A stretch of 64,000 nt of DNA, from positions 67,295-131,294 of the forward strand of contig JAQBUV010000001.1 in assembly GCA_027623815.1 (NCBI GenBank). Direction: 5' to 3'. The notes below the pieces were generated by a model. That model was not told where the DNA came from and made no database searches. It was given only the letters and a program-made list of their open reading frames with translations. Below are positions 12,515 through 18,717 of this stretch, one piece after another. This DNA comes from Chloroflexota bacterium (GTDB lineage Bacteria > Chloroflexota > Dehalococcoidia > Lucifugimonadales > UBA3495). A program made the position numbers and the translations under genes. Every line of letters starts with the position of its first letter. Position 1 is the first letter of the stretch.

Positions 12515-13246
12515 TTATTGGCCAGTGAAACGGGGCGGACGCTTCTCAACAAAAGACTGAAGCCCCTCGGCGCGGTCATCGGTACTTTGCAGAATGATGT
12601 TCAGGTCCGCCTCCAGGCGCAGTCCCTCAGCCAGGCTCAGGTCTGCGCCTTTGGTAATGGCTTCTTTGGCATACCGGGCGGCAATGGGTCCACCGGCGGC
12701 AATCGCTTCGGCCAGCCGCTGAGTCTCCCGCGTCAATTCTCCAGGCGGCACCACGCGATTGACCAGACCGATGCTCAGCGCTTCTGCCGAACCGATAACC
12801 AATGAGGTCAGCATCAGATCCGAAGCCCAGGCTGGCCCCACCAATCGGGGCAGGCGTTGCGTCCCGCCATCCCAGGGGAAGCAACCCGGTTTCGACAGAT
12901 CAGTTAAGCCAAAACTTGCTGGTTCCGCGCTGATGCGAATATCCCCCGCCAGGGCCAGTTCCAACCCGTGATCCAGGGCGTCGCCGTTTATCGAAACGAT
13001 CACTGGAATGGGCAAATTGGCCAGAGCGTCCGCTACCCGCAACTGCTCAATCCAGGCTTGCCGCTGGATTGCCGAACCGGTGGCAAGCTCCGTCGGCAGC
13101 GGTTCTCGCCCCAGGGAGAAAGCGGCCCCGGCGCCGGTTAAAACTAAGACCCGAACATTGTCGTCCTGGCGAACTTTATGGCAAGCGTCACGCATCTCCG
13201 CAGCCAGGTAGCAATCAATCAGATTACATTGGTCGGGCCGGTTCAA
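12515..13246 (-). CDS. Enoyl-CoA hydratase/isomerase family protein (true N-terminus probably upstream, up to 13306)
   Basis: LTGAGAAFSLG and SINGDALDHGLELALAGD are crotonase motifs. The track start is TTG 13246, but the frame stays open and crotonase-like (FLTYKSDGAVATLTLNRP) up to 13309 with no ATG/GTG/TTG. Confidence 0.8.
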   Translation of the reverse strand: MNRPDQCNLIDCYLAAEMRDACHKVRQDDNVRVLVLTGAGAAFSLGREPLPTELATGSAIQRQAWIEQLRVADALANLPIPVIVSINGDALDHGLELALAGDIRISAEPASFGLTDLSKPGCFPWDGGTQRLPRLVGPAWASDLMLTSLVIGSAEALSIGLVNRVVPPGELTRETQRLAEAIAAGGPIAARYAKEAITKGADLSLAEGLRLEADLNIILQSTDDRAEGLQSFVEKRPPRFTGQ

Positions 13247-13353
13247 CGTTAAAGTAGCTACCGCGCCGTCGCTTTTGTAGGTTAGAAATTTGTACTGAAT
13301 GGCAATTACTCAGGCACCCAAATATTGCTAAATGGTAAGGTGCCAACTCTGTC

Positions 13354-15502: not shown

Positions 15503-15645
15503 AGTAGTGATCAAATTTGGATCTCGTCATTCCGGCGCAAGCCGGAATCCGTCAGCGCATATCAACTTCCAGTGTATCTGGAACCGGCCTTCGCCGCTGT
15601 GACGAGCAGAGTCCCAGCCCTGACCCAGCAAGCTGAATCACCACT
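15503..15645 (+). repeat. MITE-like element, repeat family 1, long copy A (~143 bp)
   Basis: Own terminal inverted repeat AGTAGTGATCA (15503-15513) / TGAATCACCACT (15634-15645). Internal hairpins ATTCCGGC-GCAA-GCCGGAAT and CCGGC-CTTC-GCCG inside a CTCGTCA..TGACGAG outer stem. About 80% identical by eye to the reverse complement of 18574-18717. Confidence 0.75.
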
Positions 15646-15655
15646 GATTGCCCGG

Positions 15656-16327
15656 TCACAATTCGTACTCCTTCAGGTCATGGGGGATAATCAATTTGGC
15701 CTGAGTAATCTGCTGCACTGCTTCGGGAGTCCAGCCTGGTGCTACTTCCAGCAACACCAAACCCTTTGCGGTGGGCTGCATGACCGCCACGTCGGTCACG
15801 ATCAACGACACGCATTCTTTGCCGGTGATCGGGTAGGTGCATTCTTCCACTATTTTGGACTGACCCTGACGGTCGGTATGTTCCATGGCCACGATCACCG
15901 TCTTGGCGCCGGCGGCCAAGTCCATTGCCCCGCCGATGTTGCCGACGCCCCGCTCCGGCAGCATCCAGTTCGCCAAGTCTCCTTTGGCGGAAACCTGATG
16001 CGCCCCCAGCACCGTTACGTCCAGGTGGCCGCCCCGAATCATGGCGAATCCATCAACGGAACTGAAAAATGCCATGCCAGGAACCGGTTGCAGGAACTGA
16101 CCGCCAGCGTTAATCAGGTCAATGTCCTGCTCCCCTTCTTCCGCCAACGGGCCGCAGTTCAGGACGCCGCTCTCGCTGTGGTAAAACACCACGCTGTCGT
16201 CCGACACAAAGTTGGACACCAGAGTTGGGATGCCAATGCCCAGGTTAACGTAGCCGCCGTCCGGTAGCTCTTTAGCCACCCGCATGGCGACGACCTCTCG
16301 GTCTAACCGCTCTTTGTCTTCAAACAT
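15656..16327 (-). CDS. Family-I CoA-transferase, subunit B (beta)
   Basis: 223 aa. VAKELPDGGYVNLGIGIPTLV, catalytic-Glu motif HSESGVL (SENG-type), GGAMDL. Confidence 0.9.
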   Translation of the reverse strand: MFEDKERLDREVVAMRVAKELPDGGYVNLGIGIPTLVSNFVSDDSVVFYHSESGVLNCGPLAEEGEQDIDLINAGGQFLQPVPGMAFFSSVDGFAMIRGGHLDVTVLGAHQVSAKGDLANWMLPERGVGNIGGAMDLAAGAKTVIVAMEHTDRQGQSKIVEECTYPITGKECVSLIVTDVAVMQPTAKGLVLLEVAPGWTPEAVQQITQAKLIIPHDLKEYEL

Positions 16328-16341
16328 GGGGCCAACGCCTG

Positions 16342-17781
16342 CTATTCATAGGGCGAGAAGTCGCTGGGTCTAATTACGATTCGATTGACGTAAATGCCGG
16401 GGGTTATGATTGCCTCCGGGTCTAGCTTTCCCGGCTCAACCAGTTCGTCCACCTCAACCACGGTTATATCTGCTGAAGGGGCCATCACCGAGTTGAAGTT
16501 GCGAGAGGTTCCTTTGTACACCACGTTGCCCAGGGTGTCGGCTTTATGACCGCGTATGATGCAAAAATCGGCCCGAAGCGCCTCTTCCAGGACGTACTCC
16601 TTGCCGTCGATGACGCGAGTCTCTTTGCCCTCAGATATCAGCGTGCCCACGCCGGTGGGGGTATAAAAGGCGGCTACGCCCGCCCCGCCTGCCCGCAAAC
16701 GCTCCGCCAATGTGCCTTGGGGCACTAACTCCAGTTCGACCTCGCCCCGACGATAGGCCAACTCAAAGGCGGTGGGGCGGGACGCGGAGGGTGACACTGG
16801 ATAAGAGGCGATGGCCTTTTTGACCTGCTGGTTATCAATCAAAATAGTGTGGTCAATGGCTTGCTTCCCCGGTGGAGTACCAAAATTGACGACCCGTGCG
16901 ATGCCCGCGGTGTTGCTGATAATGGTCAAATTCTTGGCCCCGTGGTCGCGCAGGGAGGTCAGCAAATAATGGGGTGTTCCACCTGGCCCGGCAAAGCCAT
17001 CGATCATCACGATGGCGCCGTCGGGTAGATCACTGAGGGCGTGCAACCCGCTGGCAAAGACCTTCTCCGAAGTTTTTAGTCTCGGTGATTTGAGGTCAGA
17101 TAAGTTAAAGGCGATTTCGCGCAAGTTCGGTGAAACGGCTAGCTGCGCTCCGGTTAGAGCGATCACATCATCGGCACGCCAGCCTGCGGCAACTTCCAGT
17201 AGTTCCAGCCCTGATGCTGTAACATTGATCACCGCGATATCGGTGACGATCAGATCGACAAATCCTACGCCATCAATAGGATTGGAGCAAACTGGCACGA
17301 TATTGGGCGAGCCATCGTCCCTCGAATGGAGCATCATGGCAATGACGCGACGGGCACCAGCGGCCAAATCCACCGCAAACCCTGGCCCGAACAATCCCGG
17401 AGTCTCTGAAGTTGTCCAGTGGGTAAAGTCGCCACTACGACTAACCTGTGAGGCCTGGATAATTGCCACGTCTACCTGACCCCCACGCAGCATGGCCGCC
17501 AGGTCTACTGTACTGTGTACTGATGCTCCCGGCTGGAGATTAATCCCCGACCCATTGGAATCGACAAAACCAGTCTGGGCGGATGACTGGCCGCCCGACG
17601 AAATTCTTCCCAACAGCCCACCCTCAGTGAGAAACTGGACCGCTGCATCCGGCGGCAACTCCCCAGGAACCAGCGAAGGCAGACCTGAACCCAGGGCGAC
17701 GGTCTCACCAGGATTGAGTTCTTGGGAGACGCGCCTAGCCTGAGCGTTGGAATCTAATTTTTTAGCTGCTGGCATGGTCAC
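16342..17781 (-). CDS. Family-I CoA-transferase, fused subunit B-like (aa ~10-222) plus subunit A-like (aa ~239-479) polypeptide
   Basis: The N-terminal half aligns with beta subunits (VSQELNPGETVALGSGLPSLV, LTEGGLLG). The C-terminal half aligns with alpha subunits (DGAIVMIDGFAGPGGTP, VPQGTLAERLRAGGAGVAAFYTPTGVGT, RGHKADTLGNVVY). The linker is encoded around 17068-17115. Confidence 0.85.
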   Translation of the reverse strand: MTMPAAKKLDSNAQARRVSQELNPGETVALGSGLPSLVPGELPPDAAVQFLTEGGLLGRISSGGQSSAQTGFVDSNGSGINLQPGASVHSTVDLAAMLRGGQVDVAIIQASQVSRSGDFTHWTTSETPGLFGPGFAVDLAAGARRVIAMMLHSRDDGSPNIVPVCSNPIDGVGFVDLIVTDIAVINVTASGLELLEVAAGWRADDVIALTGAQLAVSPNLREIAFNLSDLKSPRLKTSEKVFASGLHALSDLPDGAIVMIDGFAGPGGTPHYLLTSLRDHGAKNLTIISNTAGIARVVNFGTPPGKQAIDHTILIDNQQVKKAIASYPVSPSASRPTAFELAYRRGEVELELVPQGTLAERLRAGGAGVAAFYTPTGVGTLISEGKETRVIDGKEYVLEEALRADFCIIRGHKADTLGNVVYKGTSRNFNSVMAPSADITVVEVDELVEPGKLDPEAIITPGIYVNRIVIRPSDFSPYE

Positions 17782-17806
17782 TTATGGATGTCATATCGAC
17801 CTACCT

Positions 17807-18493
17807 CTAGGACGCCGGAGTCTGTACCACCCGGTTGACGAATATTCCGGAAGAGATCACCGTCTCTGGGTCGATGCCGCCCGGGTCACAGACCCGGTCT
17901 GCTTCAGCGATGCTGACGGTGGCCGCCATTGCCATCACTGGCCCCCAGTTGCGGCCTGCCCCTAGATAGACCACATTGCCCAGGGTGTCGGCGGCATCCG
18001 CCTTGAAAAGCGCGAAGTCGGCCTTTAGCGGCAACTCCAAGATGCAGTCGCCTTGCGCAAAGGTGCGTGACTCTTTCCCATCGGCGAAACGAGTGCCAAC
18101 GCCGGTGGAGATGAACACACCACCCAGTCCCGCTCCGGCCGCGCGCAACCGCTCGGCCAGAGTCCCTTGAGGCACAATCTCGATCTCAAGTTGACCGGTC
18201 TCCCAGGCGTTCTTGATTATTCCATCGTTTGCTGGTGGGAAGGGCAAGGCAGAGATCAGCTTCTTCACCTGGCCGTTGGTCACCAACTGATCAACGCCTG
18301 AGGGTTTAGCAGAATCGGGCCAAGCCCCCGGGGAGTAAACGCAGGTCAGATTCTTGACTGGCTTTTGGCACAACGCCGCAATCAGTCCTCTGGGCACTCC
18401 ACAACCGGCGAAACCTCCGATCAGGACAGTGTCACCATTGGAGATGCCAGCCAGCGCGGCGTCACAAGTGGTATAAACCTTTTCCCTGGGCAA
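17807..18493 (-). CDS. Family-I CoA-transferase, subunit A (alpha)
   Basis: 228 aa. DTVLIGGFAGCGVP, VPQGTLAERLRAAGAGLGGVFISTGVGT, KADAADTLGNVVY. Confidence 0.9.
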   Translation of the reverse strand: MPREKVYTTCDAALAGISNGDTVLIGGFAGCGVPRGLIAALCQKPVKNLTCVYSPGAWPDSAKPSGVDQLVTNGQVKKLISALPFPPANDGIIKNAWETGQLEIEIVPQGTLAERLRAAGAGLGGVFISTGVGTRFADGKESRTFAQGDCILELPLKADFALFKADAADTLGNVVYLGAGRNWGPVMAMAATVSIAEADRVCDPGGIDPETVISSGIFVNRVVQTPAS

Positions 18494-18573
18494 TACACTC
18501 TCCCAATACGTTCCCAGCTTTGCCAGCGAATTTTAACAGGTATTTTAGGGCAGGTGAAGGGTCTGTTCTTGAC

Positions 18574-18717
18574 GGTAGCGGTTCAACTTGCCGGGTCAGG
18601 ATTGGGACTCTGCTCGTCACACCAGCGAAGGGCGGTGTCCAGATAGACTGGTGGCCGATACTCCCTGATGGATTCCTGCTTGCGCCGGAATTACATGATC
18701 CAAACTGAACCACTACC
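18574..18717 (-). repeat. MITE-like element, repeat family 1, long copy B (~144 bp)
   Basis: Terminal inverted repeat GGTAGCGGTTCA (18574-18585) / TGAACCACTACC (18706-18717), an 11/12 match. The reverse complement aligns end to end with copy A (TTTGGATC..ATTCCGGCGCAAGCAGGAATCC..TGTGACGAGCAGAGTCCCA..CCTGACCC). Confidence 0.75.

Follow-up and report, generated by a model that had tools for sequence, protein, structure and literature searches.

A family-I CoA-transferase cassette with a B-A subunit fusion in Dehalococcoidia: a probable asymmetric assembly with one canonical active site

A stretch of 64,000 nucleotides from a Chloroflexota bacterium of the class Dehalococcoidia (contig JAQBUV010000001.1, positions 67,295 to 131,294; the window hereafter) carries three co-directional minus-strand genes, separated by 25 and 14 nt, which encode subunits of a family-I coenzyme A (CoA) transferase. 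These are a free alpha-type subunit (A1), a fused protein in which a beta-type module (B1) precedes an alpha-type module (A2), and a free beta-type subunit (B2). The cassette and its modules are located as follows, where the source of each assignment is given last (ORF, open reading frame).

17807-18493, minus strand: A1, free alpha-type subunit of 228 aa, TTG start (ORF list, PF01144, TIGR02429)
16342-17781, minus strand: B1-A2 fusion of 479 aa, GTG start as listed (ORF list, PF01144 twice)
17104-17781, minus strand: B1 module (fusion residues 1-226), with a beta-type fold and a relaxed active site (TIGR02428, 153 bits)
17071-17103, minus strand: B1-A2 linker, residues about 227-237, beginning NLSDLKSPRLK, with no stop and no frameshift (sequence)
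16342-17070, minus strand: A2 module, residues 238-479 and the stop codon, slow-evolving alpha-type with an invariant DGFAGPGG (TIGR02429, 250 bits)
15656-16327, minus strand: B2, free beta-type subunit of 223 aa, ATG start (ORF list, PF01144, TIGR02428)

All three products scored far above the PF01144 cut-off of 23 bits, with 155 bits for A1, 246 bits across two stretches for the fusion, and 137 bits for B2. This single model covers both subunits, and the permuted order is therefore invisible to Pfam; fusions of about 470 aa now carry only the database names "subunit A" or "A subunit/B subunit". The NCBIfam models for 3-oxoacid CoA-transferase subunit A (TIGR02429, curated cut-off 128.5 bits) and subunit B (TIGR02428, 243.55 bits) were passed by A1 (224 bits), by fusion residues 240-470 covering A2 (250 bits), and by B2 (282.5 bits), while fusion residues 12-215 covering B1 reached 153 bits, under the cut-off. 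The cassette hence appears to contain one bona fide B (B2) and one divergent B (B1). The layout of A, B-A fusion and B proposed in a first-pass annotation of this DNA is borne out by the three ORFs, their gaps, and these profile matches. The fusion runs beta then alpha and not alpha first as in SCOT-type proteins. Its true start is probably the ATG at 17775 (477 aa), two codons inside the listed GTG at 17781, because the family consensus N-terminus begins with "MP".

That B1 and A2 are really separate genes joined through an assembly or frameshift error deserves practically no credence: no evidence supporting it was found, and the comparative data refute it. The junction (17071-17103) reads as an open frame in the window and in every relative examined, which speaks against the stop codon or frameshift that the first-pass annotation had considered for this position. 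The open junction recurs in about 45 independent Dehalococcoidia assemblies, and over 100 metagenomic protein clusters share the fused form. The related loci, about 45 of which show the A/B-A/B layout, derive from metagenome-assembled genomes (MAGs) of uncultured Dehalococcoidia sampled in marine, lake, and other settings, some of them closed chromosomes of 3-4.7 Mb. A full-length, stop-free fusion was found in 23 of the 24 genomes of the family to which the window belongs, the exception (G007) having the ordinary pair only, and in 3/16 genomes from other families of the same order. When the four modules were mapped on all ORFs of some 55 loci, the order A1, B1-A2, B2 and its orientation were constant wherever the contig was long enough. 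A search of a large protein database gave more than 5000 matches, of which the best 120 clusters were inspected; these were all about 470 aa long, 62-99% identical, and colinear from end to end. Among 300 genomes sampled evenly across the class, the full fusion was confined to the family of the window, and an unfused A2-like gene (54-63% identity) was present in 34 genomes of other families. Colinear B-A proteins made up only a handful of clusters, as against many A-B fused ones, in a library of representatives at 50% identity. The first-pass annotation had allowed that B-A fusions might be a common and already characterized subfamily; they do appear to be common inside one Dehalococcoidia order, but no characterized member, paper, or structure was found. 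In a few lineages, unrelated genes are inserted between the fusion and B2. At L045:8656-9726 this is an ORF resembling an IS110-family transposase (judged by eye), and a small membrane protein, a secreted protease, and a metallo-β-lactamase (MBL)-fold protein, also labeled by eye, occupy the same spot in other lineages.

The family-I beta subunit has the PROSITE-type signature [LF]-[HQ]-S-E-N-G, and the alpha subunit has [DN]-[GN]-x2-[LIVMFA]3-G-G-F-x3-G-x-P. The Glu motif of B2 is YHSESGVLNCGP, which reads Y-H-S-E-S-G around the catalytic Glu52 (codon 16172-16174), and both this motif and the Gly loop GNIGGAMDL are invariant in 46/46 sequences. The catalytic Glu resides in the beta subunit, and the alpha signature loop lines the acid pocket next to it at the heterodimer interface (PMC12400318). 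The external oxyanion hole is the backbone NH of a Gly strictly conserved in class I, located in a GxGGxxD loop (PMC4876117). The motifs quoted in the first-pass annotation were present, B1 having FLTEGGLLG and GPGFAVDL, and B2 having YHSESGVLN and GNIGGAMDL. B1 of the window keeps Glu53 (codon 17623-17625) within FLTEGGLLG, where H-S is replaced by L-T, and its Gly loop is GPGFAVDL. Across 48 fusions, the catalytic position of B1 is Glu in 32, Asp in 11, Ala in 2, and Ser in 2, with one other residue, and that of L044 aligns as His; the preceding HS is lost, and the second Gly of the loop is replaced by Trp, Ala, Phe, or Arg across the family. This substitution pattern, the degraded Gly loop, and the invariance of B2 support the earlier suggestion that the fused beta module may be non-catalytic. 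The alpha modules differ likewise. The A2 signature DGFAGPGG is invariant in 48/48 sequences; extended to DGFAGPGGxP, it is a variant of the alpha signature with a one-residue insertion, common to the unfused orthologues of L056, L058, and L059. A1 of the window still fits the canonical alpha signature (NGDTVLIGGFAGCGVP), and across the family its GGF motif is relaxed to G/S/A-G-F/A/Y (G20/S12/A12 at the first position and F18/A11/Y10 at the third). A1 retains on average 75%, and B1 only 49%, of those columns that are conserved to at least 95% in the core pair.

The same division between the two pairs was obtained from ancestry and evolutionary rates. Sister families (L056-L058) possess only an adjacent, unfused A + B pair, whose A is 61-66% identical to A2 and whose B is 69-73% identical to B2; the A2 module is 60-68% identical to the unfused A genes of sister lineages. 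In maximum-likelihood trees with Shimodaira-Hasegawa approximate likelihood-ratio (SH-aLRT) support, A1 formed one clade (99), as did A2 (95) and B1 (89), and B2 clustered with the unfused B genes. Because of this clade structure and the unfused A2/B2-like pairs in sister families, A2/B2 is best read as the resident ancestral pair and A1/B1 as an added or duplicated pair of single origin. The first-pass annotation had proposed an A1-B1-A2-B2 order that arose by duplication, with the middle genes fused; the A1 and B1 clades and the unfused A2/B2-like genes of sister lineages support this, and they fit a duplicated or added A-B pair whose B was fused to the resident A. The identities of 41% between A1 and A2 and 40% between B1 and B2 indicate that neither couple consists of recent paralogues.

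Mean patristic distances over 42 shared taxa were 2.42 for A1, 2.55 for B1, 0.74 for A2, and 0.53 for B2; A1 and B1 evolve 3-5 times faster than A2 and B2. The ratios of nonsynonymous to synonymous substitution (dN/dS), evaluated by the Nei-Gojobori method for ten close pairs, were 0.09-0.27 for A1, 0.10-0.25 for B1, 0.02-0.14 for A2, and 0-0.10 for B2. These values indicate that A1 and B1 are still selected proteins, remaining under purifying selection with a constraint 2-4 times weaker. The patristic matrices correlated with r = 0.97 for A1-B1 and 0.88 for A2-B2, compared with 0.61-0.66 for the four cross pairs. When the other pair was regressed out, the partial correlations were 0.94 for A1-B1, 0.80 for A2-B2, -0.08 for A1-B2, and -0.25 for B1-A2. 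Ancestry, rates, co-variation, and the active-site halves are four independent lines, all of which point to the pairing of A1 with B1 and of A2 with B2.

Relatives that are fused in other ways were also identified. A metagenomic locus, L069:3319-6097, carries a free A1 followed by a 698-aa B1-A2-B2 triple fusion and adjoins groES-groEL; the first B module of this protein has a canonical HSENG and an intact GG loop. L072:3877-6651 carries a 699-aa A-B-A triple fusion and then a free B. The two B modules of L072 are mutual closest relatives (SH-aLRT 98), and because they pair together in the tree, L072 would represent an independent duplication, suggesting that the A-B-A-B duplication with fusion arose more than once. 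L073 has the A/B-A/B layout with an intact B1 (HAENG, SPGGAVDL). L070:3312-5365, as well as L071, holds a free A1 and a B1-A2' fusion, in which B1 is canonical (HSENG) and A2' has diverged to 37% identity with A2; the fusion lacks an adjacent B2 gene, and the pattern is the reverse of that in the window. L068:5001-6365, from a small cluster (about 6 members) of Acidimicrobiales MAGs, encodes a stand-alone 454-aa B-A fusion (HAEHG, GVGGAPEL); free A and B genes are absent from its vicinity, and this protein appears to be a true permuted counterpart of SCOT. The early-branching L063, L038, L062, L069, and L073 keep near-canonical B1 motifs, and for this reason the ancestral assembly probably had two live sites, the decay of A1/B1 being a later feature of the clade of the window. 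The differently fused relatives suggest, by the Rosetta-stone argument, that the four modules act as a unit. In SCOT, an A-to-B link joins modules of a single protomer, and the B1-A2 link would therefore cross between protomers.

This point bears on a different pairing, in which B1-A2 folds into an intrachain, SCOT-like protomer by circular permutation and the free A1 and B2 make up a second one. An AlphaFold2 (AF2) model of the window fusion is indeed a compact two-domain protein, with a predicted local distance difference test score (pLDDT) of 87.8 and a predicted template modeling score (pTM) of 0.87. Most of B1 lies above pLDDT 90, and only linker residues 233-235 fall below 50. The linker is short and fixed (6 aa in 35/47 fusions; 11 aa in the window), and the stand-alone protein of Acidimicrobiales implies that B-A chains can be self-sufficient. 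The model of the window fusion alone, however, would fit either interface for B1; Foldseek, which aligns in sequence order, does not report the orientation of B1 against A2. A natural B1-A2-B2 protein, P0276, whose A2 and B2 are 66% and 70% identical to those of the window, was hence used as a proxy, with an alignment mixing B-A fused and A-B fused homologues. Its AF2 model (pLDDT 90.3, pTM 0.90), judged from confidence scores and Foldseek superposition rather than from coordinates, has a B1-A2 junction at pLDDT 93-98 and an A2-B2 linker that is disordered as in SCOT, and it can be superposed along about 490 columns on complete SCOT monomers, at target-normalized TM-scores (TMt) of 0.85-0.90. 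In this model, A2 and B2 are predicted to sit in the canonical alpha:beta orientation, and B1 must therefore dock on another face. The intrachain pairing would make A2 face B1, contrary to this prediction, and it would join an invariant half with a relaxed half in each site, contradicting the pairwise co-variation. The natural A-B-A and B-A-B triple fusions moreover have SCOT-type A-to-B links, and A2 + B2 is a stand-alone pair in sister lineages. We hence consider the intrachain protomer quite improbable; the short, fixed B1-A2 linker also fits a defined geometry between protomers.

On balance, it is moderately probable that the cassette specifies an asymmetric pseudo-heterotetramer, in which a degenerate A1:B1 protomer is tethered to the only canonical site, A2:B2. 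We infer that the modules contact each other in these pairs, that A1, the B1-A2 fusion, and B2 assemble in a 1:1:1 ratio as the counterpart of an (alpha-beta)2 enzyme, and that A1:B1 has lost CoA transfer. A2:B2 would be the canonical catalytic protomer, with Glu52 of B2 as the residue bearing the acyl and CoA adducts and with an acid pocket, facing this Glu, that is lined by the A2 signature loop; it may perform ping-pong CoA transfer via a glutamyl-CoA thioester. Invariant halves facing invariant halves would be the parsimonious arrangement. The second, paralogous protomer, A1:B1, would have kept the fold and the partner surface and not the canonical transferase site, so as to serve as a structural and possibly regulatory half. 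The B1-A2 linker would covalently tie the two protomers into an obligate, asymmetric assembly, which takes the place of a symmetric (alpha-beta)2 heterotetramer or of a homodimer as in SCOT. The substrate, at the family level, is likely a 3-oxoacid, for example acetoacetate, to which succinyl-CoA or acetyl-CoA would donate the CoA, because of the TIGR02428/TIGR02429 assignments and the 219 bits between B2 and T. melanesiensis CtfB.

Several observations weigh against this assignment of roles. The Glu (FLTE) is kept in B1 of the window and in the 10 relatives nearest to it, and 43/48 B1 modules have a carboxylate; since this exceeds the expectation from neutral decay, some chemistry or binding may persist at the B1 site. 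A1 of the window retains the canonical alpha signature, rate co-variation reflects shared constraint and not physical contact, and the L068 protein suggests that a B-A chain can be a working unit without free A or B partners. In addition, AF2 was trained on SCOT, and the A-B fused rows in the P0276 alignment bias the prediction toward canonical A2:B2 pairing.

The first of these observations leads to the proposal that both A1:B1 and A2:B2 are catalytic, differing in specificity or chemistry, and that the fusion channels or coordinates their reactions. Besides the retention of Glu53 in the window and of Glu or Asp in 43/48 modules, it is supported by purifying selection on A1 and B1 (dN/dS 0.1-0.25) and by the canonical B1 of the early-branching L063, L069, and L073 (HSENG or HAENG with SPGGAVDL). 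A variant assigns B1 a thioesterase role in the Asp-carrying members, and it draws on the acyl-CoA hydrolase activity reported for Glu-to-Asp mutants of family-I enzymes (PMC12400318, citing Mack/Selmer and Buckel). The carboxylate has, however, been lost with the architecture intact (Ser in L054 and L064, Ala in L066, an aligned His in L044), and the oxyanion-hole Gly is changed to a bulky Phe, Trp, or Arg in most crown members, the window included. The acid-pocket Phe of A1 varies (F18/A11/Y10), B1 scores under the NCBIfam cut-off, and it retains 16 of the 75 core-conserved beta columns. Two working sites are thus unlikely for the window. The first-pass idea of two different active sites for two substrates is hence not favored here, given the relaxed constraint on A1 + B1 and the loss of their catalytic signatures, but it may hold for L063, L069, and L073, which have HSENG or HAENG and an intact GG loop.

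A further role for the degenerate protomer of the asymmetric assembly is that A1:B1 is an allosteric site, which senses acyl-CoA or acid and gates A2:B2, or an acyl-CoA hydrolase in the Asp members; we regard this as a rather speculative and doubtful proposal. If it were true, the family would represent a natural case of half-of-the-sites reactivity of a CoA-transferase, locked by gene fusion and turned into a division of labor. The relatives form a graded series, including those with both sites intact, those with decayed A1/B1, and one with A2 diverged without an adjacent B2 (L070), which would make the evolutionary path directly testable.

Three further features surround the cassette.

18530-18558, minus strand: promoter-like site TTCACC-17-TAAAAT with TG, a consensus match only, about 37 nt upstream of the A1 start; candidate operon promoter
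18575-18716, no strand assigned: upstream copy of an intergenic repeat of about 140 nt, belonging to the same dispersed repeat as the downstream copy
15504-15644, no strand assigned: downstream copy of the repeat of about 140 nt, in the opposite orientation to the upstream copy

Exactly the three genes of the cassette lie between the two copies, whose arms are complementary over 86 nt at 77% and 62 nt at 84%, and the repeat looks like an intergenic element of the repetitive extragenic palindrome (REP) or miniature inverted-repeat transposable element (MITE) type. Such flanking inverted repeats might suggest recent mobility of the cassette; this was rejected, as vertical conservation across the family holds for the cassette as well as for its groEL/thiG synteny. 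The three genes form an operon of their own, flanked by the convergent groES-groEL and the divergent thiG-thiE. In many relatives, too, thiG-thiE lies on one flank, and the other flank holds groES-groEL together with two crotonases, an AMP-dependent ligase, and a PHP-like protein. The genomic context gave no clue to the substrate, the syntenic groEL, crotonase, and AMP-ligase genes being located on another transcription unit. A thiolase gene is present on the same contig, outside the window. The crotonase ORF at 12515-13309 (translated from 13309) matched Pfam ECH_1 from profile position 4 only if it was extended upstream of the first canonical start codon. The genome of the window (G000) has a second, ordinary A + B pair as well (C99:3390-4825), with 46-48% identity to A2/B2, and another contig carries a further alpha-type gene (C44:4346-5059).

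Each module is an ordinary family-I CoA-transferase module, and the cassette does not represent a new chemistry. What is unusual is that the fusion runs B to A, that a single operon contains two non-equivalent alpha/beta pairs, and that one of these pairs has decayed in a coordinated way. The two-subunit enzymes ScoAB, AtoDA, CtfAB, and PcaIJ (3cdk, 3rrl, 5dbn, 9cq2) share with the cassette the fold, the families, the Glu in beta, and the A-then-B gene order. A2 is 41-44% identical to solved alpha chains in Foldseek alignments, and the best solved beta chain for B2 is 9csc (T. melanesiensis CtfB). These canonical enzymes assemble as (alpha-beta)2 heterotetramers (PMC12400318), whereas the operon of the window has two non-identical alpha/beta pairs, the first beta being fused to the second alpha and one pair having a degraded active site. 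The motifs also differ, B2 having HSESG in place of SENG and A2 having DGFAGPGG in place of GGFxxxGxP. The single-chain A-B fusions of the SCOT/ASCT/YdiF type (3oxo, 3dlx, 4kgb, 6lp1) resemble the window fusion in carrying alpha and beta on one polypeptide. In contrast to them, the window fusion runs B then A, its family has a linker of 6-11 aa as compared with the long flexible linker of SCOT, and it would require free A and B partners. PDB chains of SCOT accordingly match the window fusion only as two permuted stretches (phmmer), and its model aligns to SCOT one module at a time, with a query-normalized TM-score (TMq) of 0.43 in Foldseek.

In the tandem duplication model of circular permutation (Topic Page PMC3320104), A-B-A-B with a fused middle is the predicted intermediate, and the B-A protein of L068 corresponds to the end-state. 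Unlike in this model, the Dehalococcoidia lineage keeps the outer units, and it is A2 and B2 that hold the conserved catalytic halves, so that no progression toward a B1-A2 permutant is taking place. Searches of PDB chains and Foldseek gave no solved structure with this domain order, and literature searches gave no description of B-A ordered CoA-transferases, no demonstration of a pseudoenzyme-partner replacement in a CoA-transferase, and, within the searchable library, no paper on half-of-the-sites reactivity. A paper on SAR202 (PMC5395668) covers only the family-III CaiB/BaiF transferases. The architecture is real and conserved, and it has apparently not been described before.

Family-I CoA-transferases are textbook examples of ping-pong enzymes and serve as work-horses in the metabolic engineering of acetone, butyrate, and polyester pathways. 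Tethered, non-equivalent protomers would provide a natural system for asking whether the second site of a symmetric enzyme is needed; Lloyd and Shoolingin-Jordan reportedly described one-subunit catalysis in dimeric pig-heart SCOT in 2001. When the subunits of a homo-oligomer are duplicated, one copy can stay catalytic while the other evolves under weaker constraint as a pseudoenzyme partner. The cassette would follow the same principle, a symmetric oligomer having been replaced by a hetero-oligomer, with the addition that its halves are locked together by gene fusion. The family may thus illustrate the way in which duplication of homo-oligomer subunits leads to an obligate hetero-oligomer that contains a pseudoenzyme partner, the intermediates being found in its relatives.

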